Of a stretch of DNA of 46,059 bases, positions 852 to 46,046 are shown one piece after another. Under the pieces are notes generated by a model. That model saw only the letters and a list, made by a program, of their open reading frames with translations. It was not told where the DNA came from and did no database searches. Numbering within the stretch: the first letter of the stretch is position 1; each line of letters begins with the position of its first letter. The stretch lies in UHGV virus genome UHGV-0171654; one strand, written 5' to 3'. Made by a program: the position numbers and the translations under genes. The stretch comes from a virus.

Positions 852-3800
852 TTATGAGGGTAGTACAGCAGTCAGCAGGTGTGCCGGTTCTGCCGTGTAT
901 GGTTCGGTTGAGGTATCTGTACCTGTGTAACTCGGCCCGCGACTGAGCATAATCATGAGCTGGTTATGCTCCCGCGCGATAGACGTATTAACCACAAGCT
1001 CCTGCGCACCGGGGTTGTAGGTGCCTACCAGCCACTCAACCAGATTATCGGGATCGGTACAATCAACGGCTCGAATCTGATTTTCACGCCCCATCTGTGT
1101 TGTGTGATAGAGCATGAAAACGCGACCATAGCGGGACCGAGCCAGTACAGGACGGCTGGCAATCGGAACCAGGATATTCGTTGCGGTAATGACTGTAAAT
1201 TCATAGTCAGTGAGAATATCTGTGGCCCAACCCGAACCCGTCCAGCGGATACGCACAACCTGAGTGCGACCGTTTGCCTGATGCTGCCATATGACAGTCT
1301 GGAACCGGTTTTCGACGTCAGTGCAGGAGCCGCACTGGTTGACGTAGCCGGATGACTGCGCAATGTTTGCGATGCGCTCCGAGTTTGATTCAGTCATCGG
1401 CAGTGCAAAACTCGCAGACCCCGCTGCGCTGGTAAACGTCTGACCTTTATCCGCCGAGACCCCGTAGAACATCCCGTAGTTTGTGTCAGCATTCCCCGCG
1501 CTCTGACGATAGCCCCAGCAGAGATGCAATCTGTCGTTATCATCCACGACAATGCGCTGTTCATACGGGTTCGAGTCCGTTGCATCAATGATTTTTGTTT
1601 CATTGATAAACGTTTTCGTCGCATCGTCAAACGTTGACATGTAGTAAGCGCCATCGCCGGAACGACCTACACGATAAAACGCACAAACGGTGCCGTCAGA
1701 GAACGTGACGAATCGCGGATACGTGATAAGGTCAAATGCAGTAAAAGAAATCGCTTCCCATGCCGATATGTCGTGCGGGTTTGTGGTGATAGCCGCCCGG
1801 CATGGGTGCGCGTGCATATTGCCCGCAACAATTACGTATCCCTCTTTCGTCACGACTAGCGAAAACAGGTTGTGTCCGTCGGGTTCGTTCGGAGAGTGGA
1901 ACGGATTACCTGCAATCGTGCTGAGGTCAAATTTTTGCCACGCACCACCATAAATACTGCGCTGCAAAATCATCGGGTTTCGCCCCAGAGAGACACCCAC
2001 CACGTACACATAATCACCCGCAATAACAACGTTGTCCTGACTGACCGGGTTGAAATTGTAGTCGGCGTAGTTGTCCAGCTCGAACGGCAGGCGCTCAATT
2101 GTCGCCTGCATGCGGTTTTCCGGGACTGAACTCAGGGCGTTAACCCGACGAGCTAACACTGACTCCGGTTTAATTTTTTCTACTTTGTGGTCGTAGTATT
2201 GTGCCGCCGTCATTCGCACGCGAACATACACATATCCGTCCTGGGTTGCCGTGCCCTCAACAGAGGCGTCCACCAGTCGTCCTGCGTTAGTGAACGTTAC
2301 GAGAACACCGACGAAATTTTTGGACGCGTCACACTGAATTATCGGCGCATACGTTCCTGTTGTTGATAACGCCCCCAGCCAGCCACGCAGCCGGATAACA
2401 TCCCCGACCGAGACAGGGATGTAATAAGCCCACCATCTGCTGGCAGTAGTAATCGACCCATCGCTGTTCATCACCTGACCCTTCGTGAGAACCGCTTCAT
2501 CGCAGGTATAGTCCGCGATAACCCGACTATCCAGCCCCTGGGTTGCATCCAGTTCGTCTACGGATTCGCGGTATTCATCGCCGGGTGCGAACGTGGACAG
2601 TTTTTTAGAGAGGACAAACGGGCTGGTGCCGAGACGATGACGAATGGCAATATAACCGTCTTGCGTGGCCGTGGCCTCCAGTTCACGAACCACTATCGCT
2701 CTAGTAGAGGCCCAGTATGTGAGGACGGAAACGAAGTTTTTATTTTCGTCAACCTGGAACATCCATTCGGCATTTCCTGTGGAATTGACGCCGACAGGGC
2801 CGCGATATTTCACGCTATCGCCAGGTTTGGCGGGAACGTATAACGTAATAAACGACTCGGTTGCCGTCTTCGTCCCGTCTGCATTCAGAGCATAGAAAAT
2901 CCCAAATTCATTATCCTGGGATTTTGAGATATCAAAATATCCGAGGTTTTTTTCAATCATCCCCACCCGGTCAGAACTGGCAGCACCGCCGGACTGGTCT
3001 GCTGTTTCCTCCGTGAATGTCCGCGCCTTGCGTAACACGATGGAAAAATCCAGAATCCCTGACGCGTCGGATTTTCGCACGCGCACAGCGATAAAACCGT
3101 CCTGCGCAGCGATCGCCGTCATCGAACCGTCTTCGGTAACCCCTTTTGATACGTAATATTTCAACACAGAGACAACGTTTTTATCAGCATCGCACTGTAT
3201 CATCTGTGGGATTTGTTCATTGTACGGTGCGCTGCCCAGCTTCCCGGTGAAATCAACCGCCTGATGCTTCTTAACCGGGATGTAATACATTGAAAAAGCG
3301 GCCGCAGGAGTCGTTGTGCCATCGGCATTTAACACAATACCGTTAACTTCAGTGGCCAGTGGTACAGCATCAACGCCCTCATAGCCAAATAAAACAGAAT
3401 CAGTAGCGTAACCGGCAACCCCGCCAGCGACATCAATATCAGACTCAACCAGAATCGTTTTTTTACGCTGCGTCAGAGTGAATTCGGCCGTGTCTCGCAC
3501 TCTGACGTATATATAACCGTCCTGAGTAGCCGTCGCCGATAATGTGGATTTGTCGGTTGGACTCCCCGTTGAGGTCCAGTAGGCAAGCGGCGCGACGAAC
3601 GATTTGTTGTTGTCGAGCTGGATGAGATACGCCATCTCCTCACCCACCGTATTAGATCCCACCGTGCCGCTGTAAGTGAATGTCTCCCCCTCGCGCGCCT
3701 TGAGATAGTAAGCATCCCATGATGCATTTGACTGCGTAGAGCCGTCAGCATTAATAACCAACCCGGCCGTAATATCAGCAGCGCCTTTTGCGTCCACTGT

Positions 3801-4439
3801 CACGTAGCCGGTTGTCAGCGCAGTCATTGATGGCATCGCCCGCCCGGTAGCCGCCAGCGTGCCACCGTTATTGATGTACTCGTTAGCCAGAGTGCTGTCA
3901 GCAGAATCCCTTACCCAGCAATACCCACCGCTTAAAATATTTCCTGCGGTGACATCACTTTGCGCCGCGCTTAATGTTGCATACTCCCTTATGCTGTTAC
4001 TGATTGAACCTTGCCCGGGATACTCAGCAACCTCAGAAGCCACGCCGGCATTATTTTGGTAATATCGAAATGCCAGAACATTACCAACGCCCTGAGGAAC
4101 GCGGAAATATTGACCAGAAGTTGTCCCGGCAATACCGGCAGTGGTGTCGGCAAAGGTGAGCTTATTGTCGCCGAACTCTGCGGCGGTTGATGCGGAAGCC
4201 ACAGCCTCATCTCTTGCAACTCCCGCCTCTGTTGCATATTGCAGTGAGTTTTCTTCTGATGTAGCCGCGCTTTGCTTGGATAAAAGAGCTGAGCCAGCTG
4301 CATCCTGGGCTTGCTGGGCGGCAGCACTAGTATCCTGATATCCTTGCTCGGCTTCCAGCATGTATTGTTTGGCTTCTGCGGCGCTAACGGCGGCATCTGC
4401 TGCTAATTGAGCAGTTTTTTGCGTTTCGGTGGTTGTCAT
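852..4439 (-). CDS. tail spike/tail fiber protein (1195 aa): N-terminal fiber anchor, four tandem ~145-aa repeat modules, C-terminal Asp-box (BNR)-containing putative glycosidase/depolymerase domain
   Basis: Last gene of tail module. Internal repeats each ending in ATQDGY[IV]x[VI]R[VH]R (aa ~304, 445, 591, 731), with NADG and QCDAxKN motifs. C-terminal region contains S-A-D-K-G-Q-T-F, a canonical SxDxGxTW/F Asp-box. Confidence 0.8.
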   Translation of the reverse strand: MTTTETQKTAQLAADAAVSAAEAKQYMLEAEQGYQDTSAAAQQAQDAAGSALLSKQSAATSEENSLQYATEAGVARDEAVASASTAAEFGDNKLTFADTTAGIAGTTSGQYFRVPQGVGNVLAFRYYQNNAGVASEVAEYPGQGSISNSIREYATLSAAQSDVTAGNILSGGYCWVRDSADSTLANEYINNGGTLAATGRAMPSMTALTTGYVTVDAKGAADITAGLVINADGSTQSNASWDAYYLKAREGETFTYSGTVGSNTVGEEMAYLIQLDNNKSFVAPLAYWTSTGSPTDKSTLSATATQDGYIYVRVRDTAEFTLTQRKKTILVESDIDVAGGVAGYATDSVLFGYEGVDAVPLATEVNGIVLNADGTTTPAAAFSMYYIPVKKHQAVDFTGKLGSAPYNEQIPQMIQCDADKNVVSVLKYYVSKGVTEDGSMTAIAAQDGFIAVRVRKSDASGILDFSIVLRKARTFTEETADQSGGAASSDRVGMIEKNLGYFDISKSQDNEFGIFYALNADGTKTATESFITLYVPAKPGDSVKYRGPVGVNSTGNAEWMFQVDENKNFVSVLTYWASTRAIVVRELEATATQDGYIAIRHRLGTSPFVLSKKLSTFAPGDEYRESVDELDATQGLDSRVIADYTCDEAVLTKGQVMNSDGSITTASRWWAYYIPVSVGDVIRLRGWLGALSTTGTYAPIIQCDASKNFVGVLVTFTNAGRLVDASVEGTATQDGYVYVRVRMTAAQYYDHKVEKIKPESVLARRVNALSSVPENRMQATIERLPFELDNYADYNFNPVSQDNVVIAGDYVYVVGVSLGRNPMILQRSIYGGAWQKFDLSTIAGNPFHSPNEPDGHNLFSLVVTKEGYVIVAGNMHAHPCRAAITTNPHDISAWEAISFTAFDLITYPRFVTFSDGTVCAFYRVGRSGDGAYYMSTFDDATKTFINETKIIDATDSNPYEQRIVVDDNDRLHLCWGYRQSAGNADTNYGMFYGVSADKGQTFTSAAGSASFALPMTESNSERIANIAQSSGYVNQCGSCTDVENRFQTVIWQHQANGRTQVVRIRWTGSGWATDILTDYEFTVITATNILVPIASRPVLARSRYGRVFMLYHTTQMGRENQIRAVDCTDPDNLVEWLVGTYNPGAQELVVNTSIAREHNQLMIMLSRGPSYTGTDTSTEPYTAEPAHLLTAVLPS
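2205..3872 (-). repeat. Four tandem in-frame ~430-nt repeat modules inside the tail spike gene (protein-level tandem domain array)
   Basis: Recurring NADG...YY[IL]P...QCDA.KN.V.VL...ATQDGY..VRVR blocks at aa ~220-320, 360-460, 510-605, 650-745 of the encoded protein. Confidence 0.7.
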
Positions 4440-20120: not shown

Positions 20121-21293
<1,173 letters not shown>

Positions 21294-22091
21294 TCAATCC
21301 TGTTTTGAAAGCCCTGGAATGACAGCCTCCCAGGTGCAACGACAATTTGGTAATTCGCCTGGCATGATGTGCTCGCCATCAATGAGCATCCCCTCCGAGA
21401 GCTCGAAAAGCCTGCCATTAGCTTTCACATGGGACTGGCGAGGCTTCTTACCTGCATGGGAGTGCTTCCATATACCCTGGGTAATGCCTAGCGCCTGCTG
21501 TCGCGCAGACTGAACGACTGAGGTGGCCTTGTTGTTCTGATCTCGGGCAATGAACGCCGCACGCCGCCGGGTAATCCCGTATCGCTTCTGGAGTTCATCG
21601 GTGAGATAGGACATGTCGCGCCCACGCGCTACCGACCGCATAACCAGCCCTTCCACCTCGGTGAAATACTTTTCGGGGATGGATCGGATAAGGCCGACAT
21701 TCTCGGCGATGGTCGCCTGAAGAGCGTTATTCATCTGCGAGGTCATCTTGAACTCGACAGTAAACCCCGCATCTTTGAAGGCTGTGGCCAGTGAAGCATC
21801 CGCGTTTTTCATGGCGTCGTTAGCGAACCTGTCGGCCAGCTTTTGCGCCATGTCATCAAACCGCCGCGTCCAGCGCTTAGACAGTTTATGCATGGCATTC
21901 CGCATCATCACTGCAGGTGATGCATCCATGGCGACAGCCGCGCCGCTGGCCCGATAGTTTGCCGACAGCCAGTAGACAACAGATGCCTGCATTTCCTGCA
22001 CCTGCTTATCAAGCTGTCTGCGGTACCATGCTTCGACGCCAGCGTTAGGCCTGATAGGCCGGATAGTTTTTGGCTTTTTCTTTCCGGTCAT
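21294..22091 (-). CDS. head morphogenesis protein, Mu F / SPP1 gp7 family
   Basis: 265 aa; C-terminal conserved GELPNCRCT motif typical of Phage_Mu_F. Confidence 0.8.
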   Translation of the reverse strand: MTGKKKPKTIRPIRPNAGVEAWYRRQLDKQVQEMQASVVYWLSANYRASGAAVAMDASPAVMMRNAMHKLSKRWTRRFDDMAQKLADRFANDAMKNADASLATAFKDAGFTVEFKMTSQMNNALQATIAENVGLIRSIPEKYFTEVEGLVMRSVARGRDMSYLTDELQKRYGITRRRAAFIARDQNNKATSVVQSARQQALGITQGIWKHSHAGKKPRQSHVKANGRLFELSEGMLIDGEHIMPGELPNCRCTWEAVIPGLSKQD

Positions 22092-22100
22092 CAGGAATTC

Positions 22101-24047
22101 CTATATTGGCTTAAACTCCTCTCCATCCAGACGAATAACCTTGATGGGTAGCGGAGTATCTTTCAGCTTTTGCAAGTCGCCATTTTCGGGGTTGTATTTA
22201 ATGGAAAGATGAGCGCGATATTCTGGGTATGAATGTTCTGCACCAGAGGCCTTCAGCTCCGCAAAACGCTTTTGCAGGTCAGGGCTTTCAAGATGCATAA
22301 CCAAGGCTCGCCAAGGCTCCTTGCCCATAATTTCGATATCGCCACTAATTTGTGCCTCATAAACCCTAACAGGGTCAGCATCTACCGTGATTGGCTTGTT
22401 GCGTGAGTACATGAGCGTTACATGCATGTCACTCGGGGCGATTAAATTATTTATGCCAAGAGATTCAAGGTGCGAATATATGGCAGACGCCGTTTCTGCA
22501 TCGGGCTTAACACTTGCATACCCATTCATCTGATTCGAGTCATTAGCTGTCACGGTGGGCTCTTCCTCTTCGTCGTAGTCGTCTTCGATTTCGAGGTCAT
22601 CATTCAGGTCCAGAGAGTGATAGGGCGAGTCCGGGTCACCGGCAATTTTTTCACGGACTTCGTTGCCAGAGAGCACGCTGGCAGCCACATAGACAGCGTC
22701 AGTGTCCGCGTCTACTTTGCGGATTTCCGCCCGCTCTTTAGCGCTCATCTCGTACAGCGGCTCAAAGTCGAAGGTGATCCCGTCGTCAATGTCGCCAAAC
22801 TCAGAGAGCTGAATGATGTCCATCACACGCTTCAGGTTGTCTTTGAAAACAGACTGCTGTAGGGCGTGAATGTAATCGTAGAAAACGCGGATTTCGCCGT
22901 CAGACGATGCATTGAGGCCATTGGGCGTAATGCCCAATAGTTTGACCAGCGGAATGCTTGATACCGATGACATCTGCTCCTGAGACTGTGCCTGTAGCGC
23001 ATCAAGACCAGCTATAGGCGCGCTGACGAACTGCACAGTCTCTGGCTTGTTCGGGTCATTATTGACGGCGAACGCACCGCGGTTATCACGACACTGATTC
23101 ATGATCTGCAGACGTGAAATCAGCGTATCCGCTGCGCCGCCTGTCAGGATTTGGCTCATATCGGTACTGAAAACCGGTATCGAATAGGAGTGAATCATGT
23201 CGCTGACGCTGTCGCGGGTGCGAAGCCAGTTATTGACGTAAGGCTCGGCGATCTGCGAGAGAGACAGGCCGCGAAAGTTATACGATGCCTTCAGCAGGTC
23301 AGGCACCTGCCGAGAAACGAAGTCAATCATACGGCTTGCATGTACGGTCCGGCCCATGACAAACCACTGCGTCGGCTTGTAGAAATCCGGGCTCAGCGGG
23401 TTGTCGGAGTTATAAATCCCCGGGTAGGTCCAGATAGGCTCTATTACCCGGAAACCCTGGAGGCTGCCTTTCGTGATCTTCTTGTCGCTCATGAAGAGCT
23501 TCGATTGCAGCTCATTGTCGTCCATCCATGCGGAGATTCCCCGCGGTGAGCGAACATCAATGTAAATCTGGCCGCCGCCGAAGTAGCCATCATGCTCTAC
23601 GGCCTCTTTAAAGCGCTCGCGCACCTTAAACCGCTTCATGGCCTCTTCGAGTTTCTTTACCCGATCCGCTTTGTCTTCATTGCCGACGGTTTTGAGCTTT
23701 ATCCATTTGCGGGTCATTTCTTCCGCAATGGTGCCCACCATCTTGCGATATTCAGGTTTCTGCGCCAGCGTGGCCAGGTACGGATAGCCTGGGAAACTCT
23801 CGAAGTCGCCGTAGCCGTAACCGCCATACGCAGCATTGAGGGCATCGTAAGGCGTGGAATCCATTGCCAGAATGGCGCTTTTGATGGCCTCGGGGATCAC
23901 GCCTTTCGGGGGTTCGTAGCGCTGAAACTCTCTTCTCGGCGCTGCGCGGACATCGGCCACTGCTTCCGGCCTAATCCCGACTTTCGGCGCTTCAGGTTCT
24001 TTAGCCGGCTCAGGCGCGGCGACTTCTTTCTTTTTAAACCACCACAC
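22101..24047 (-). CDS. portal protein (Mu gp29/DUF935-like) with a C-terminal 2H-phosphoesterase-like domain
   Basis: 648 aa following TerL. Residues ~1-470 portal-like; acidic linker (EIEDDYDEEEEP); C-terminal ~145 aa contain two H-x-[ST]-x motifs (MHVTLMY at aa 541-547, AHLSIKY at aa 612-618) spaced 71 aa apart, as in LigT/Acb1-type 2H enzymes. Confidence 0.75.
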   Translation of the reverse strand: MWWFKKKEVAAPEPAKEPEAPKVGIRPEAVADVRAAPRREFQRYEPPKGVIPEAIKSAILAMDSTPYDALNAAYGGYGYGDFESFPGYPYLATLAQKPEYRKMVGTIAEEMTRKWIKLKTVGNEDKADRVKKLEEAMKRFKVRERFKEAVEHDGYFGGGQIYIDVRSPRGISAWMDDNELQSKLFMSDKKITKGSLQGFRVIEPIWTYPGIYNSDNPLSPDFYKPTQWFVMGRTVHASRMIDFVSRQVPDLLKASYNFRGLSLSQIAEPYVNNWLRTRDSVSDMIHSYSIPVFSTDMSQILTGGAADTLISRLQIMNQCRDNRGAFAVNNDPNKPETVQFVSAPIAGLDALQAQSQEQMSSVSSIPLVKLLGITPNGLNASSDGEIRVFYDYIHALQQSVFKDNLKRVMDIIQLSEFGDIDDGITFDFEPLYEMSAKERAEIRKVDADTDAVYVAASVLSGNEVREKIAGDPDSPYHSLDLNDDLEIEDDYDEEEEPTVTANDSNQMNGYASVKPDAETASAIYSHLESLGINNLIAPSDMHVTLMYSRNKPITVDADPVRVYEAQISGDIEIMGKEPWRALVMHLESPDLQKRFAELKASGAEHSYPEYRAHLSIKYNPENGDLQKLKDTPLPIKVIRLDGEEFKPI

Positions 24048-25724
24048 TTAAATTCTCCTGAGTTGATTCGGGTCGATAACCATCGGCTGCGGGCCGGAAA
24101 TCAGGTTGTCGTCGATTGCGTCCATCCATGTGTCGAGGATGTCGTCGTTGTCGTGACTGTCATCAGCGGAGAAAGCGGCGCATTCCGTCATCGCCGTCAG
24201 CACCCAGTCTGTTGAGCCTGCGATCGTCCCATCTTCGTAGAAGATGCTGGATAGTTTCTGGCCGTCGTCGGTGTGCGTTGCGGGGACAAAGACTTTCCCG
24301 GTTTTGATTTGCGGAATAACATTCAGGCAGCGAACAAGCTTGTTCTGCCCGGTTCCACGGGGAATTTCCCTTACCGGGATAGCGAGTTGCCCGGGCGTCT
24401 GGCTGCGCTTTTTCAGGGTGGTGATGAGGCCCTGACCGGCCTGTTTCTCTTCAATGGCCATATGGCGAAGCGGCATAACCCTCATGGACCCGGACAGGCG
24501 CCATTTCTCCCAAACCTCTTCCGCTTTCTTCAGGAGGTCCTCCGGGTCCCATCGACCGCGGACGACATCGATGATGTAAAGATTCCCGTCCACTCCCATG
24601 CCAGCCAGCGTAAACACGGTGTAATCCAGCCAGTCCTCTACCTTGCCGCTGTTCGTATCGACGTACACAGCACGATGCGTAAGCTTCGGCAGCGTGGTGT
24701 ACGTTCTGAACCAGCTGGTGTCGATGATCCCGCCAGTCAGTGCCATCGGGTTTTGCTGGTATTGCGACAGGAAGGTATAGCGATCCTTTTCCCACAACTG
24801 CAGGAGGTCGTTAACGTCTTCCATCTGCGGCCAGTAGGACCAGTAGCGAACGCCACCAACGACCACAGAATCGGTATCTTTGACCGTTTCCCAGCAAAGC
24901 GAACGCCATGGCTCATCGAGCGACTGGATGTACTTCTCGTCGATCATGGCCGGTATGGCGACATGGTGAAACGGCACCCCCATTCCGCCGGCAAGCATGA
25001 AGCCCGTTGCGTCGTCGGTGTGCAGACGCTGCTGAATGCTCACAAATGGCGTAGGGTGCTCTTTCGACTTATCGCCGCGCCGCGATCGAATGGTGTTAAC
25101 CAGCAGCGTATTCGCGCTTTTGCGTCGGGACTCGCTGAGCATGTCCACCGGCTTGTTGTAGTCGTCCAGCATCACCATGCCGGAAAACTCTGGTCCGTAG
25201 TAGCCACCACGACCACCGGTGATCTGCCCGTTGCTTGAGCGCGATACCGTCTGGCCTATAGAGCGCCCTCGCTCGTCCTTTATCTCCCACTCTTCTGCCT
25301 GGTTGACACCAAACGAGCATGGCCAGAACTCCTGATATTCACGGCTGGCGATAATGTCGCGGGTGCGCCGGCTGTTACGCTTTACCAGCGTGTCAGCAAA
25401 AGAGATATTCAGGTTGCGAAAGCGTTTAAGCCGCTTCTCCTGCACCAGGGCGTTGACATACGCCGGGAAGTGGATGGAGAAGAACTCTGTTTTTGTACCG
25501 CCGGGCGGGATGTTGATAATCAGGTTTCGCGGGACAAGGCGCCCGGCAAGCAGATCATCAATTTTCGAAGCCATTAGGCGGTGATGCCAGTTAACCAGCA
25601 GCCGATCGCCCTGAATCAGCTCGAACCATATCCGGGTGAAGTTGAGGAATGACTTCGTGGACTTTGAACGGATGATCACGCGTTCCGGGAATGACAGGTC
25701 ATCCCATTCGATAATTCCGCTCAT
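24048..25724 (-). CDS. terminase large subunit
   Basis: 558 aa; Walker A-like PPGGTKTE; position between TerS and portal. Confidence 0.85.
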   Translation of the reverse strand: MSGIIEWDDLSFPERVIIRSKSTKSFLNFTRIWFELIQGDRLLVNWHHRLMASKIDDLLAGRLVPRNLIINIPPGGTKTEFFSIHFPAYVNALVQEKRLKRFRNLNISFADTLVKRNSRRTRDIIASREYQEFWPCSFGVNQAEEWEIKDERGRSIGQTVSRSSNGQITGGRGGYYGPEFSGMVMLDDYNKPVDMLSESRRKSANTLLVNTIRSRRGDKSKEHPTPFVSIQQRLHTDDATGFMLAGGMGVPFHHVAIPAMIDEKYIQSLDEPWRSLCWETVKDTDSVVVGGVRYWSYWPQMEDVNDLLQLWEKDRYTFLSQYQQNPMALTGGIIDTSWFRTYTTLPKLTHRAVYVDTNSGKVEDWLDYTVFTLAGMGVDGNLYIIDVVRGRWDPEDLLKKAEEVWEKWRLSGSMRVMPLRHMAIEEKQAGQGLITTLKKRSQTPGQLAIPVREIPRGTGQNKLVRCLNVIPQIKTGKVFVPATHTDDGQKLSSIFYEDGTIAGSTDWVLTAMTECAAFSADDSHDNDDILDTWMDAIDDNLISGPQPMVIDPNQLRRI

Positions 25725-25725
25725 A

Positions 25726-26355
25726 TCAGTCCAGCCCTTCTAACCTTCCCTCCAGCTTCTGCTGGGCCTTCGCATAGTCTTCAGCGGTGTATGTCACCTG
25801 ATTCAGTGGGCCGCCGTCTTTACCGGTCAGCTCGGTTTTCTTCGGAGCGTCCCAACCCTGCATTTCGGCCAACTGCTTAATTGCCGCTTTGGGGTCGTGC
25901 ATCTTCAGCTTGATGCCGTCCTTTCCCGTAGTGAGCTCAGAGATTGCACTCATTGCGTCAGAGTCCTGAAGAACGGAATCTTTGAAGCTCCACACGGCCT
26001 GGAACACAGGATTGCCATCGTCATCTTCGCCAACGATGCTGTTGCTGAACTCGGCTATATCGGCGATGGATGTTCGACCCATCTTAGAAAGGCGCTTTAA
26101 CGCCTCCTCTCGGGTCATGATTGCCTCATCGACAACTTCACCCTGGACGGCTTGCAGGAATGCCACAACGTTAACATTTGCATACATTCGTGACGCCGCT
26201 GCTCGCATCGCATCACCTTTGGCTTTCCCTTTGGCCGTCTTGTAAGCGTCCGTCTGGTTCCTGCCTTTGATGATTGCAAGTGCGAATCTTTTTTGTAGCG
26301 GAGTCAGCACATCGAAAAGCTTCTGCTGCTCTGCCGTGAGCTTTTTCGATGCCAT
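25726..26355 (-). CDS. terminase small subunit
   Basis: Start at MASKKLTAEQQKLF (AGAGGATTGTTCTGTATG); basic HTH-like N-terminus typical of TerS; 2-nt gap to TerL. Confidence 0.65.
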   Translation of the reverse strand: MASKKLTAEQQKLFDVLTPLQKRFALAIIKGRNQTDAYKTAKGKAKGDAMRAAASRMYANVNVVAFLQAVQGEVVDEAIMTREEALKRLSKMGRTSIADIAEFSNSIVGEDDDGNPVFQAVWSFKDSVLQDSDAMSAISELTTGKDGIKLKMHDPKAAIKQLAEMQGWDAPKKTELTGKDGGPLNQVTYTAEDYAKAQQKLEGRLEGLD

Positions 26356-26823
26356 ACAGAACAATCCTCTGGTTTACTTTGATACTTCCCCGACAATTTC
26401 GAGACCATCGCGTCTGAAAACTTATATAAAACTCTGTCAATGGTGCTTTTATGGCACCATTTGCAGAACTTTATATTTACGCCTGCTTGCCAATTACAGG
26501 GGTAATCCGGATGCACTTCTTAGTGAGCCAGCCCCAGCGCAAAAGCACTGAAAGGATGAGCAGCGGCTTCATATGTGGGCGAAGCGTAATTTCCGCCATT
26601 AGGATCCCAGTAGTGCGCATATGGATTACCTCGTTGTGACATTATCGAGCCACCTCTTGAAGTGGCTCTGTAATGCCCGATCAGGCCTCGCTAGCCAGCT
26701 CAACCAAATCTTTGAAGTCCTGGCACATATGCAGTAGATGACCATGATCGTCGACAAAGTTGTAGCTTTTGAATAGTTCTACGATTTCCTCGGGACTCTT
26801 CCCACTCAAACGAGGAAACCGTT

Positions 26824-39061: not shown

Positions 39062-40066
39062 ATGAGCGAAATAATGGATTTAGTAGTCATCGAGAAAAAG
39101 AACGCGATGGCGGTTTTCACCAATAACGACCAGCTCGACCCGCTTATCGAACTAATCGAAAAAGAGGCTCGCAGCCTGGTGCCGGACGTGACCACGAAAA
39201 AAGGCCGCGATGCCATCGCATCCATGGCTCACAAGGTCGCGCGCTCTAAAACCTACATCGACAACGCAGGTAAAGACCTGGTCGCTGAGCTGAAGGCTCT
39301 GCCAAAGCAAATCGACGAAAGCCGCCGCGTTGTCCGTGAACGTCTCGATGCGCTGAAAGATGAAGTGCGTCGCCCGCTGACTGAATGGGAAGCCGAGCAG
39401 GAGCGCATTAAGGCCGAAGAAGCCATGAACGCGATGCACGCCGAAGCGCTGGAAATGAACATCAAGTTTGATCAGGAGTTGGCGGCCAAGTTCGAAGCGG
39501 ACCACGAAATGGCCCTGCTGATGGATAAAGATATTGACCGCGAACGCGCAGATAAAGCAGCCGAAGCCGAACGCCAGCGCATTGCCCGCGAAGAAGAGAT
39601 TAAGCGCCAGGCGGAAGAGAAAGCCAAGCGTGAAGCAGCTGAAAAGGCACAGCGTGAAATTGACGCTGCGGCAGCCAGAGAGCGCGAGGCGATTTTGGCA
39701 AAAGAGCGCGCAGAACGTGAGCGCATTGAAGCTCAGCAGCGGGCCGAACGCGAACAGCGAGAAGCAGCTGAACGTGCTGAGCGTGAAAAACAGGCCGCCG
39801 TGGAATCTGAGCGCCGCAAGGCTCAGGAAGAAGCCGACCGCATCCGCCGAGAGGCAGAGCAACGCGAACAGGCCCGACTTGCCGAAGAGAAGCGCAAAGC
39901 CGATGAGCAGGCGCGCCGCGAAGCCGACGTTAAGCACCGCAAAACTGTCGGTACTGAAATCGTCAAGGCTTTGCTGGCCAATACCAGCTTATCCCGCGAT
40001 CAGGCGATTGAAGTCCTGACTGCGATTAAAGACGGAAATATCCCACATACCGGGATCAGCTACTGA
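39062..40066 (+). CDS. hypothetical protein with long E/R/K/A-rich predicted single alpha-helix (334 aa), recombination-module gene
   Basis: CAGGGGAAACCATG RBS; ~170-aa stretch of [32 protein letters not shown]... repeats. Confidence 0.55.
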
Positions 40067-41973: not shown

Positions 41974-42128
41974 AAACTCACCACGACGGTATCACCGTTG
42001 GCAGTATCACCCTTCCCTATTCCATCAATCGCCGGGGATGGATCGCCCCAAGCGGCGACGTTATCAAAAACCCATTAAAGGCTCAGCGCCTGGCCGAGCT
42101 GATGAACAGTAAGAAGGTGGTGGCATGA
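41970..42128 (+). CDS. micro-ORF (52 aa) ATGA-coupled between exo and the N6A-methyltransferase gene
   Basis: [52 protein letters not shown]. Confidence 0.4.
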
Positions 42129-42784
42129 GCGGAAAATACTCTCTGATTTATGCGGACCCGCCATGGGCTTATGGGAACACAATCAGCAACGGCGCCGCTG
42201 CCGAACACTACTCGACGATGCGACTCATCGACCTGAAGCGTCTGCCTGTGTGGGAGCTGGCTGCCGAAAACGCGGTGCTGGCGATGTGGTACACCGGCAC
42301 CCACAACCAGGAGGCGATCGAGCTGGCCGAGGCCTGGGGCTTTACGGTGCGCACTATGAAGGGCTTCACCTGGGTGAAGTTGAATCAGCTGGCCGAGTTA
42401 CGCATTACCAAGGCTCTGGCAGAGGGAGATGTGGCCGACTTTTACGACTTCCTCGACCTGCTGAATGCAGAGACGCGCATGAACGGCGGCAATCATACCC
42501 GCGCCAACACGGAAGACGTACTGATCGCCACCCGCGGCGCCGGGCTGGAGCGCAAGCACGCCGGCATTAAGCAGGTGGTCTACAGCCCGCTCGGCGCGCA
42601 CAGCGAGAAACCGTGGGAAGTTCGCCACCGCCTGGAACTGCTCTACGGCGACGTGCCACGAATTGAGCTTTTCAGCCGCAGCGCAGCGCCAGACTGGAGC
42701 CACTGGGGCAACCAGTGCGCCACCGCTTCCGTTGAACTGATCCCCGGCTGCGCCATCGACGTTGTGAAGGCGGAGGCAGCATGA
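42125..42784 (+). CDS. DNA N6-adenine methyltransferase, MT-A70 family
   Basis: LIYADPPWAY (DPPW catalytic motif) near N-terminus; 219 aa. Confidence 0.8.
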   Translation: MSGKYSLIYADPPWAYGNTISNGAAAEHYSTMRLIDLKRLPVWELAAENAVLAMWYTGTHNQEAIELAEAWGFTVRTMKGFTWVKLNQLAELRITKALAEGDVADFYDFLDLLNAETRMNGGNHTRANTEDVLIATRGAGLERKHAGIKQVVYSPLGAHSEKPWEVRHRLELLYGDVPRIELFSRSAAPDWSHWGNQCATASVELIPGCAIDVVKAEAA

Positions 42785-43833
42785 GCGCGGCAGCGTACTA
42801 CAACGAGATCGACCCATTCGCGGCGCAGTGGCTGCGTAACCTCATAGCCGCCGGGCATATCGCCCCGGGCGAAGTTGACGAACGGAGTATTGAAGATGTC
42901 ACACCTGACGACCTCAGAGGATTTACCCAGTGCCACTTTTTCGCCGGGATTGGTGGATGGTCATATGCTTTGCGTCTGGCCGGATGGCCGGATAACAGAC
43001 CGATTTGGACAGGAAGTTGCCCATGCCAGCCTTTCTCCTCGACTGGCAAAGGCGCTGGGTTTGGTGACGACAGACATTTGTGGCCTGCCTTTGGCTGGCT
43101 TATCAAGCAGTGCCGACCTCAGCGCATCGCTGGCGAACAAGTTGCAGGAGGTCGTGCGGATCCATGGTTCGACCTTGTACAAAATGACGTGGAAAGAATG
43201 GGCTACGCCTTCGGGCTTACGCCGTTCCCGGCTGCGGGTGTCGGGTCGCCGAACGAACGAGAGCGGGCCTACTGGGTGGCCGACGCCAACCTGCAATACG
43301 AATCCACAGCCAGAAACGAAGCGCGGACTGCAGAACCTGTCCGGAGCGGTGAAATTATCTGGCTGGCAAACTCCGCTCGCGAACGACGCGACGGGGTCGA
43401 CCCATTGCTACAGCGGAAAGAACCCGGACGGTACTCCGAAAGTCTGCCTGAAATTACCGGGAACCGTTCTACTGACGGGTTGGGTAACTCCAACGTCACG
43501 CGACTGGAAGGATTCGTCGGGAATGACGGCGCAGCGGGACGGGAAAGATCGACTGGACCAGCTGCCGCGCCAGGCTTACACCTGCGGCCCCTTGAGGTTA
43601 ACGGTTTTTGGCGAGATGCGGACTGGCTCTTTTGTCGAGATGGAAAATGGCGTCCAGTTGAACCCGGCACATTCCCGCTGGTTGATGGGGCTGCCGCACG
43701 CCTGGGACGAGTCGAGCCCGGGGTGGCAAGAGTGGCAAGCAGCAACCGCGTCGGCCGCCTGAAGGGTTACGGCAACGCCATAAACGCACAGGCAGCTGCG
43801 GCTTTCATTCGCGCTTATATGGGGGTCGCATGA
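42781..43833 (+). CDS. DNA (cytosine-5)-methyltransferase
   Basis: FFAGIGGW (motif I), GSCPCQPFSSTGK (PCQ motif IV), GEQV (ENV-like), GSPNERERAYWVA (motif VIII-like), C-terminal GYGNAINAQAAAAFI (motif X-like); ATGA overlap with upstream MTase. Confidence 0.7.
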   Translation: MSAAAYYNEIDPFAAQWLRNLIAAGHIAPGEVDERSIEDVTPDDLRGFTQCHFFAGIGGWSYALRLAGWPDNRPIWTGSCPCQPFSSTGKGAGFGDDRHLWPAFGWLIKQCRPQRIAGEQVAGGRADPWFDLVQNDVERMGYAFGLTPFPAAGVGSPNERERAYWVADANLQYESTARNEARTAEPVRSGEIIWLANSARERRDGVDPLLQRKEPGRYSESLPEITGNRSTDGLGNSNVTRLEGFVGNDGAAGRERSTGPAAAPGLHLRPLEVNGFWRDADWLFCRDGKWRPVEPGTFPLVDGAAARLGRVEPGVARVASSNRVGRLKGYGNAINAQAAAAFIRAYMGVA

Positions 43834-44670: not shown

Positions 44671-45006
44671 ATGGCGTCTGACAAACCGATAACAGCACAG
44701 CAGGCCGCCGATTTGCTCATCGTGTCTGCGCGGGTGATCTACCGCCTGATTGATTCTGGAGAGCTCGCCGGCCGCAAGGTCGGCAACAAGTACAGAACGA
44801 CCGAGGCTGCGTGTATTGCATATTTGAAAACCCCGCGCGATCCTGTCATCGCGAACGCGGGTGAACATAAAGGAGAAGTTTTATGTCAATCACCCTCAGG
44901 GGCGGCGTGTGGCACTGTCATTTCTTTACGCCGTCAGGGAAAAGAGTTAGGCGATCTCTTGGCACGGGGGACAAAAAGCAGGCGCAGGAGCTCCACGATA
45001 AGCTAA
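44671..45006 (+). CDS. xis: excisionase-like DNA-binding protein (Xis); ORF extends into int, true stop may be earlier in another isolate
   Basis: [36 protein letters not shown]... excisionase-type HTH; immediately upstream of and overlapping int. Confidence 0.55.
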
Positions 45007-46046
45007 AGGCTGAAGCATGGCGGGTTGACCAGATCGGCGACCTGCCTGTCAGAACCTTTGAAGAGTGCTGTATCCGGTGGCTGCGGGAGAAAGACCACAA
45101 ACGGTCGCTGGATGATGACAAAACCAAAATAGAGTTTTGGCTGCAGCATTTTTCCGGCCACGACGTTTCGAAAATAACGGCGGAGGAAATTCACGAAGCC
45201 GTTAACGGGATGATTAACCGTAAGCACCTGCAGGTGTGGGAGAGTAAACGTGATGCCGCGTTGAGGAAGGGAAGGCCGATTCCGGAGTACAAGCCACGGC
45301 AGGTTTCTCAGGCGACGAAGGCGCAGCACCTTTCCTTCATTAGGTCCTTGCTCAGGGCCGCGGCGAATGACTGGGGCTGGATAAAAACGGCGCCAGTTAT
45401 CAAAACCCGCAAGCCAATCAGTAAGCGAATACGGTGGCTGACCAGAGAAGAAGCTGAACGGTTGATCGAGTGCATGCCGGAGAGCATTAAACCAGTGGTG
45501 ATATTTGCACTGGCAACCGGCCTGCGCCGCTCAAACATCATCGGGCTTGAGTGGCAGCAGGTCGATATGCAGAGAAAGGTTGCATGGGTAAATCCGGAGA
45601 ACGCAAAAGCGGGCAAGGCGATTGGCGTAGCTCTGAATGATACCGCATGCAGGGTATTAAGGGATCAGATAGGGAAGCACTCCCGGTGGGTGTTCGTTCA
45701 CACGACGGCAAAACATCGCCCGGATGGAACGCTGACGCCCGCCGTGAGAAAAATGCGAGTGGATGACAATAACGCCTGGCGCGCCGGACTGAAAAAAGCG
45801 GGGATAGAGGATTTCCGTTTTCACGACCTCCGGCATACCTGGGCGAGCTGGTTAATCCAGTCCGGTGTCCCGCTTTCTGTTTTGCAGGAAATGGGCGGAT
45901 GGGAGAGCATCGAGATGGTGCGCCGTTATGCTCACCTGGCACCAAACCATTTGACCGAGCACGCACGGAAAATTGACGCCATTTTTGGCGCTAGCGACAC
46001 AAATACGACACAAGAAGGAAATCAGGCTGGACTAAAACTTGCGTAA
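44883..46046 (+). CDS. int: tyrosine site-specific integrase
   Basis: [11 protein letters not shown] (Arg box), [26 protein letters not shown] (catalytic Tyr) motifs; GGAGAAGTTTTATG RBS; terminal position next to expected att/tRNA. Confidence 0.9.

Follow-up and report, generated by a model that had tools for sequence, protein, structure and literature searches.

A phage portal protein with a C-terminal Acb1-family phosphodiesterase domain: an accessory cassette and candidate capsid cargo

Introduction

What is an enzyme-like domain doing at the end of a phage portal protein? The question is raised by UHGV virus genome UHGV-0171654, a stretch of 46,059 nucleotides referred to here, at its full length, as the window. 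An open reading frame (ORF) on its minus strand (22101–24047; GTG start, 648 aa, taken from the ORF list and its translation) encodes a portal protein that continues through an acidic linker into a C-terminal domain with two histidine motifs 71 residues apart. A first-pass annotation had reported the ORF, the linker and the spacing of the motifs, and all of them are found in the sequence at those positions. We assign the domain, with hardly any room for doubt, to the Acb1 family of 2H phosphodiesterases. It is an accessory cassette, gained relative to near-identical phages, and we propose that it may be carried in the capsid as a pre-packaged antagonist of cyclic-nucleotide signalling.

The first-pass annotation knew of no description of a portal–2H fusion, and in this it was mistaken. 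Iyer, Burroughs, Anantharaman and Aravind (2022; PMC9503650, section 3.4.5) described fusions of 2H domains with MuF or portal proteins, for which they proposed packaging and injection against (oligo)nucleotide immune signalling. Their account covers exactly this class and this hypothesis, but in a single survey sentence, with no residue, structural, population or experimental analysis. The exact window protein also already bears the precomputed Pfam tags Phage_portal_3 and Acb1. Portal–Acb1 fusions are not discussed in the primary Acb1 paper or in the later papers checked. Beyond PMC9503650, the new elements are the assignment to the Acb1 subfamily, the cassette indel with its presence–absence pair, the signs that the cassette is mobile, the differences in the active site and an overlooked example in the cyanophage Pam3.

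The portal protein and its C-terminal domain

The Acb1-family domain comprises aa 510–648 (22104–22520, minus strand) and was delimited and characterized with Pfam, profile searches, AlphaFold2 (AF2) modelling, Foldseek and the ratio of nonsynonymous to synonymous substitution rates (dN/dS). The stop codon of the ORF occupies 22101–22103; the coding part of the C-terminal interval flagged in the first-pass annotation is 22104–22535. Pfam Acb1 (PF23474) matches aa 510–637 with E = 7.8e-24 and 84.5 bits, the gathering cut-off of the family being 27 bits. PHROG 755, a 2H family labelled "RNA ligase", matches the C-terminal domain with E = 2.6e-28. A single-sequence phmmer search of the PDB retrieves Acb1 of phage FBB1 (7t26) at E = 1.9e-9, and a family profile of 30 homologues retrieves the same structure at E = 6.6e-18.

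The AF2 model of aa 505–648, built from a 24-sequence alignment, has a mean predicted local distance difference test score (pLDDT) of 94.6 and a predicted template modelling score (pTM) of 0.87. Its top five Foldseek matches in the PDB are all Acb1-type enzymes (TM-score 0.72–0.82, E ~1e-8), namely a phosphodiesterase of Burkholderia phage BCSR5 (TM 0.80–0.82) and FBB1 Acb1 in its apo and product-bound forms (TM 0.72–0.76). Ranks 1–39 consist throughout of 2H-type chains (Acb1, the cyclic phosphodiesterase CPDase, LigT, Usb1, poxvirus cGAMP phosphodiesterase and MHV ns2), with the generic enzymes CPDase, LigT, Usb1 and the poxvirus phosphodiesterase at E ~1e-3 or weaker and TM mostly ~0.5. The Pfam score, the profile match, the confident model and the Foldseek result thus uphold the earlier suggestion of an Acb1-type 2H phosphoesterase on the portal C-terminus.

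The two motifs are MHVTLMY (aa 541–547) and AHLSIKY (aa 612–618), with H542 and H613 as their histidines; one further H-x-[ST] in the whole protein (HAS at aa 236) lies within the portal body. The first catalytic motif, H542-V-T544 (22416–22424, minus strand), does not vary in either alignment (30 and 24 sequences) or in any portal-fused copy. In the second, H613-L-S615 (22203–22211, minus strand), the histidine is invariant and the +2 position is S or T in all compared copies. Both motifs lie at or in strands of the model (residues 39–44 and 109–114 in domain numbering), and the only columns invariant across diverged homologues are domain H38, T40 and H109, that is, H542, T544 and H613. Judging by the superposition on Acb1 crystal structures (TM ~0.8), the two catalytic histidines would be juxtaposed. 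Approximate dN/dS values, for which synonymous sites are near saturation, are 0.07–0.08 for the domain and 0.07–0.11 for the portal body. They point to purifying selection on the domain as strong as that on the portal body, and to a function that is maintained.

Acb1 of phage T4 has the catalytic tetrad H44/T46/H113/T115, the stacking residues Y12, W74, F107 and W147, a glutamate (E141) that reads adenine N6, and a lid formed by residues 145–152 (Hobbs et al. 2022, PMC9117128). We mapped these positions through the 57B orthologue of a T4-like phage, the T4 number being the orthologue number plus one. H44/T46 correspond to H542/T544, which are kept, and H113/T115 to H613/S615, a conservative T-to-S exchange. 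Y12 is kept as Y510, and F107 is kept as an aromatic residue, Y607 (aromatic in nearly all portal-fused copies). The window domain thus shares with T4/FBB1 Acb1 (T4 gene 57B; PDB 7t26/7t27; PMC9117128) the PF23474 family, the compact 2H fold (TM 0.72–0.76), the tetrad and two of the four stacking aromatics. It differs in forming the C-terminus of a portal, whereas T4/FBB1 Acb1 is a stand-alone protein of ~150 aa encoded away from the head genes, with 25% identity; in the T4-like phage RZ, the acb1 orthologue adjoins 57A and gene 1. The BCSR5 enzyme (PDB 9q2g/9q2y), the best structural match (E = 6e-9), is also a significant sequence match. Unlike the window domain it stands alone (165 aa), its lid has been seen both open and closed, and identity between the two is ~21%. 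A literature search found no paper on the BCSR5 enzyme.

The portal body (aa 89–451; 22695–23783, minus strand) belongs to Phage_portal_3/DUF1073 (Pfam E = 5.4e-93) and matches PHROG 146, "portal protein", with E = 2.2e-136. The "Mu-type" portal of the first-pass annotation has to be replaced accordingly: Phage_portal_3 (DUF1073, like E217 gp19) is the sole portal family returned by the Pfam scan, and the gene order small terminase, large terminase, portal, MuF is the one expected for such a portal. The nearest solved portals in a PDB search are gp19 of Pa193 and of E217 (E ~1e-34), with 12 chains per entry. Body and domain are connected by a tether recognizable in the sequence (aa ~470–509; 22521–22640, minus strand). 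It contains the acidic run DDLEIEDDYDEEEE (aa 483–496, nt 22560–22601), and the acidic linker LEIEDDYDEEEEPTVT occupies aa 485–500 of the fusion protein. Residues 470–509 have no secondary structure in the full-length model, itself of low confidence.

An accessory cassette gained relative to close phages

The closest relatives of the window are Klebsiella phages with 92–95% DNA identity over the head module and ~480 bp less at the domain. Their portals are 506 aa long and end in ...DDYDEEEETDPDDKGGSS*. The window portal is 142 aa longer, which agrees with the excess of ~140 aa reported in the first-pass annotation. Megablast, the gap in blastn and an alignment of the junctions delimit a window-specific segment of 511 bp (22050–22560, minus strand), which stands for ~30 bp in the closest phages. 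Homology stops in the E496 codon, at its third base (22560), and restarts at 22049, within the MuF gene; between these points lie the end of the linker, the Acb1 domain, the stop codon, an intergenic spacer and a new 14-codon start of MuF. The GC content of 22053–22560 is 0.47, compared with 0.54–0.57 in the flanking head genes, and GC at third codon positions is 0.45–0.46 in the domain against 0.64–0.72 in those genes. No direct repeats or recombination scars were evident at the junctions on reading the alignment, no dedicated repeat search having been made.

That homologous portals do without the extension holds for the 506-aa proteins of the close phages and equally for the best 120 portal homologues, all but one of which (P0007) lack the domain, nearly all being ~500–515 aa long. 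Between the window and the Pseudomonas fusions described below, the portal bodies are ~22% identical and the domains 46–51%. Domains so much more alike than the portal bodies suggest that the cassette has moved between portals that belong to one Pfam family but are otherwise unrelated. The phages with and without the 511-bp cassette, 92–95% identical otherwise, offer an unusually clean natural experiment.

A separate observation concerns the start of the adjacent MuF gene. In a relative without the domain, Klebsiella phage ST15-VIM1phi2.1 (L001), the MuF frame appears open upstream to ATGATGACC, within the acidic-linker codons of the portal and in the +1 frame (~22595–22603); the record of this phage annotates a later MuF start than the open frame suggests. 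The window keeps the linker nucleotides of this relative, but its +1 frame meets a stop after the linker, and MuF starts at 22091.

Recurrence of the fusion and other partners of Acb1

The identical 648-aa protein occurs on 15 public contigs. One of them is a scaffold of 339 kb, which indicates that the fusion-bearing phage is a prophage. In IMG/VR, the complete ORF is present in 17 loci, and one more locus is cut at the contig end. Related fusions of 650–651 aa (IMG/VR loci L022–L024) are ~77% identical in the portal body and ~80% in the domain; in the distant portal fusions L027 and L030, a MuF gene again comes after the portal. A genome-collection scan with a tighter alignment had as its only matches two Pseudomonas genomes (prophages), encoding fusions of 600–608 aa with a different but likewise acidic linker; the scan with the single domain sequence gave no match. 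Complete E. coli genomes lack the portal–Acb1 module.

A word-index protein search that used just the domain gave no more than two hits, and an exhaustive search of representative proteins was used instead. It found 820 clusters with an Acb1 domain, mostly stand-alone proteins of ~150 aa, and at least four further clusters (at 50% identity) combining Phage_portal_3 with Acb1. Two enterobacterial lineages, Pseudomonas prophages and cyanophage Pam3 all share the fusion architecture. In the last, the portal gp3 (PDB 8hds chain A, 621 aa) has an Acb1-like C-terminal domain at aa 482–595 with the motifs LHVTIAY and HISLSL (profile E = 1.3e-8); it differs in its cyanobacterial host and in having His at the position equivalent to T4 F107. 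The structure paper (PMC9942802) does not mention an Acb1-like portal domain. A virion map and mass-spectrometry data exist for Pam3, and these could reveal if the domain is retained in the capsid.

Acb1 domains are also fused to DarA_N, to Phage_Mu_F, to a 1954-aa polyvalent protein with SLT and ADP-ribosyltransferase (ART) domains, to an Alt-like ADP-ribosyltransferase and to an XkdF prohead protease; representative proteins with non-portal Acb1 fusions are P0124, P0127, P0130, P0228, P0258, P0143, P0260 and P0290. No tail, capsid-shell or terminase partners were present among the fusions found. The non-portal fusions amount to a family of multi-effector or capsid-cargo architectures.

Two database entries bear on annotation. 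P0099 (484 aa, Citrobacter freundii) carries the UniRef name "anti-CBASS protein Acb1 family", yet it is a domain-less DUF1073 portal with an acidic tail end and PF06381 as its sole Pfam tag; the name "Acb1" seems to have been carried over to plain portals from fusion proteins. P0001 (152 aa, Cronobacter sakazakii, NCBI "hypothetical protein") was considered as an ancestral separate acb1 gene beside the portal. We rejected this candidate, as the protein is the same as the final 152 residues of the 650-aa fusion of L024 (L024:1480-3429) and is probably a fragment or the product of a mis-called start. Portals without the domain are thus being mislabelled as Acb1 family, and fragments of fusions are being called stand-alone genes.

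Proposed function as capsid cargo

We propose a head protein with two functions, in which a portal of E217/Pa193 type bears an Acb1 2H enzyme on a flexible acidic tether of ~40 residues. Solved portals are dodecamers in which the C-terminus forms a barrel directed into the capsid. Up to 12 copies of the enzyme would thereby be built into the capsid interior, beside the DNA end. The enzyme would hydrolyse 3′-5′-linked cyclic di- or trinucleotide messengers of the type used by cyclic oligonucleotide-based antiphage signalling systems (CBASS), through a metal-independent His/His mechanism, and so blunt abortive-infection signalling. The portal would act as a targeting device and direct the enzyme into the head, a role that MuF, DarA and Alt-type proteins play for other effectors. 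Release would follow, probably by cleavage of the linker, and the enzyme would enter the next host with the DNA, while the same polypeptide, possibly together with a free form made from an internal GTG, would act in the cytoplasm late in infection, when the portal is made.

For this statement as a whole, covering a packaged, freed and delivered enzyme with additional late cytoplasmic action, we estimate a probability of roughly 0.55. Enzymatic activity, substrate, virion location, release and ejection are all predicted, and our confidence in the parts (identity, activity, incorporation and delivery) reflects our own estimates rather than a computation. Activity against cyclic oligonucleotides is likely, and incorporation of the domain into capsids nearly as likely. 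Delivery into the next cell is a tentative step, to which we give somewhat less than even odds.

The partners of Acb1 argue for the loading step. They are nearly all head-internal or injected proteins, which favours the portal as a loader of the enzyme into the head, and their repeated fusion to Acb1 lends indirect support to the idea of a pre-packaged enzyme. Capsid-packaged, injected anti-defence proteins, also a subject of PMC9503650, include DarA/DarB of P1, Alt and IPI of T4, MuF–effector fusions and polyvalent proteins. The window protein would resemble them in having a counter-defence enzyme pre-loaded in the head, and related Acb1 domains are themselves found in fusions with DarA_N, with MuF, with Alt-like ART and with polyvalent proteins. 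Those carriers, however, are themselves ejected, whereas the portal is a fixed ring, from which a release step is needed. Space for such a cargo is suggested by the nearest of the solved portals, Pa193 and E217 gp19 (PDB 9b41 and 8fvh). Pa193 gp19 (9b41 chain L) is 765 aa long, with only residues 94–528 modelled; its C-terminal extension of ~237 residues is invisible in the virion map, which implies room for cargo on the portal C-terminus. The Pa193/E217 extension differs from that of the window in having no match to the Acb1 domain and in belonging to PHROG 4660, "minor head protein".

A number of observations weigh against this proposal. The first group concerns substrate recognition. T4 W74 corresponds to M574, which is not aromatic (M or L across the portal-fused clade, F in FBB1); a tryptophan is found at aa 579 (PWRALV), five residues further on. 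E141 corresponds to K646, invariant in the close clade, although alignment is less reliable at the very C-terminus. E643, three residues before it, is invariant as well, as is the [FW]-K-P-[IV] ending in the close clade. The C-terminal lid with W147 is absent, the protein ending at I648, two residues past the E141-equivalent position. Three of the five base-contacting or lid positions of T4 Acb1 are thus not conserved in the window domain, and comparison of the sequences suggests intact catalytic machinery combined with a partly different base-recognition apparatus. Given these differences (W74, E141, lid), the substrate range cannot simply be transferred from T4 Acb1.

The second group concerns placement and delivery. 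With a mean pLDDT of 57, the full-length AF2 model is too poor to show where the domain is placed. A portal-bound domain would stay with the capsid, outside the cell, unless cleaved, and its ejection is purely conjectural. The only candidate for releasing it is the product of a gene two positions downstream of the portal, a candidate head maturation protease or scaffold of 389 aa (DUF2213/Pa193_gp24 family; 20121–21290, minus strand; PHROG 2229 "head maturation protease", E = 5e-168). Its Pa193 homologue, gp24, has been described as a putative scaffold that persists at capsid vertices, an interpretation at odds with a protease, and no cleavage site could be identified. Twelve molecules per infection would be a small dose. 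Not every partner of Acb1 is a head protein, as a GNAT acetyltransferase and the Thoeris inhibitor Tad5 are also among them, and literature searches found no experimental work on portal-, MuF- or DarA-linked Acb1.

In its most explicit form, the proposal would have the neighbouring head protease cut the acidic linker, so that ~12 Acb1 molecules are freed in the capsid, exit with the DNA and destroy CBASS-type messengers ahead of phage gene expression, the internal GTG adding free enzyme late. We regard this complete sequence of events as unlikely. If it were true, one gene would yield a structural protein together with two immune antagonists, one delivered by the virion and one acting in the cytoplasm; it would be the first anti-signalling enzyme shown to be delivered by way of a portal, and the lid-less active site with Lys in place of Glu might differ from T4 Acb1 in substrate range. 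Known Acb1 enzymes have been studied as proteins made after infection starts. An Acb1 built into the virion, if real, would already be there as infection begins, and cyclic-nucleotide signalling would join the short list of defences disarmed by pre-packaged proteins.

Alternative explanations

The most serious rival to the cargo proposal is that the domain is a late cytoplasmic enzyme only. Fusion to the portal would then couple its synthesis to late expression, when structural proteins trigger CBASS, and the copies in the capsid would be incidental and never delivered; the working form would be free portal, procapsids or a separate product started at an internal GTG. We consider this clearly less probable than the cargo proposal, with which it is not exclusive. 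It is in keeping with the portal staying in the virion after ejection. It also fits the temperate nature of the phage (integrase at 44883–46046), since prophage induction involves no injected protein and newly made enzyme would be the only source. On the other hand, timing alone would predict fusion to any late protein, and the partners found are almost all head-internal or injected.

The internal start bears on the same rival. An in-frame GTG (V499; 22551–22553, minus strand) could serve as the start of a free Acb1 of 150 aa, being preceded by a Shine-Dalgarno-like purine run. It lies 6 nt after the purine-rich GAGGAAGAG run (upstream, 22554–22573), and conservation of the GTG with GAGGAG at the domain boundary extends over three lineages, namely the window and two enterobacterial fusion lineages (L022 and L024). 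A gene caller took the internal Val/GTG as the start of P0001. V499 may therefore be an internal start yielding free enzyme, and this is weak evidence in favour of a late enzyme. As proof of an internal start, the conservation was rejected and kept as a lead: glutamate codons are intrinsically Shine-Dalgarno-like, conservation of the GTG is fairly often expected by chance, and three lineages are too few.

An improbable alternative is that the domain is an RNA end-healing enzyme of LigT/CPDase type, opening 2′,3′-cyclic phosphate ends for tRNA or RNA repair after attack by anticodon nucleases. The label "RNA ligase" of PHROG 755, the annotation of many phage homologues as RNA ligase or 2′,3′-cyclic phosphodiesterase, the appearance of LigT, CPDase and Usb1 in the fold search and the loss of the adenine-reading Glu and the lid of T4 Acb1 all lend it some colour. 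The "RNA ligase" labels presumably predate the characterization of Acb1 in 2022. Fold comparison separates the two assignments, with LigT-type enzymes at TM ~0.5 and E ~1e-3 against TM ~0.8 and E ~1e-8 for Acb1; no LigT or 2_5_RNA_ligase2 match appears in Pfam even at E <= 1, and the window genes examined include no RNA ligase or polynucleotide kinase.

It is more improbable still that the domain has no catalytic activity or a purely structural role, for instance in decorating the crown with an effect on DNA packaging or retention. Portal C-terminal regions do contact packaged DNA, and related portals have long, invisible C-terminal extensions. Against this, the catalytic H, T and H are the only residues invariant across diverged homologues, and assembly does not need the domain, as near-identical phages lack it. 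An assembly or sequencing artefact joining two genes, suggested by the seemingly stand-alone P0001 (152 aa), is effectively refuted by the identical 648-aa ORF on 15 independent contigs and 17 IMG/VR loci and by diverged in-frame fusions in other enterobacterial lineages, Pseudomonas and Pam3, P0001 being itself the end of an L024-type fusion.

Genomic neighbourhood and minor observations

The head genes of the window are arranged in the order small terminase, large terminase, portal, MuF/gp7-like protein, protease or scaffold, cement protein and major capsid protein, followed by genes for an E217-like contractile tail. The small terminase subunit is encoded at 25726–26364 (minus strand; Terminase_2 Pfam tag) and the large subunit at 24048–25724 (minus strand; PHROG 38), upstream of the portal. 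Directly downstream of the portal lies the gene for a MuF/SPP1 gp7-like minor head protein (21294–22091, minus strand; NCBIfam TIGR01641, Pfam Phage_Mu_F tag and PHROG 324 "head morphogenesis"). The 389-aa protein encoded at 20121–21290 (minus strand) contains a highly charged repeat region.

The window represents a temperate phage, with the integrase, two DNA methyltransferases, RecT/YqaJ, O/P replication genes, a Nin/Q region and lysis genes. Its nearest phages suggest Klebsiella as the host. The methyltransferase genes overlap on the plus strand near the integrase and are of the MT-A70 N6-adenine type (42125–42784) and the C5-cytosine type (42781–43833); both are probably anti-restriction functions of the same prophage. 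An early-region protein of 334 aa (39062–40066, plus strand) has no Pfam match and belongs to PHROG 1376, a family of unknown function (E = 4e-105). At the distal end of the tail cluster, a protein of 1195 aa (852–4439, minus strand) contains a BNR_4 domain, a sialidase-like repeat, at aa 821–1073. Its position suggests that it is probably the tail fibre, and its BNR_4 module may be capsule-degrading or receptor-binding.

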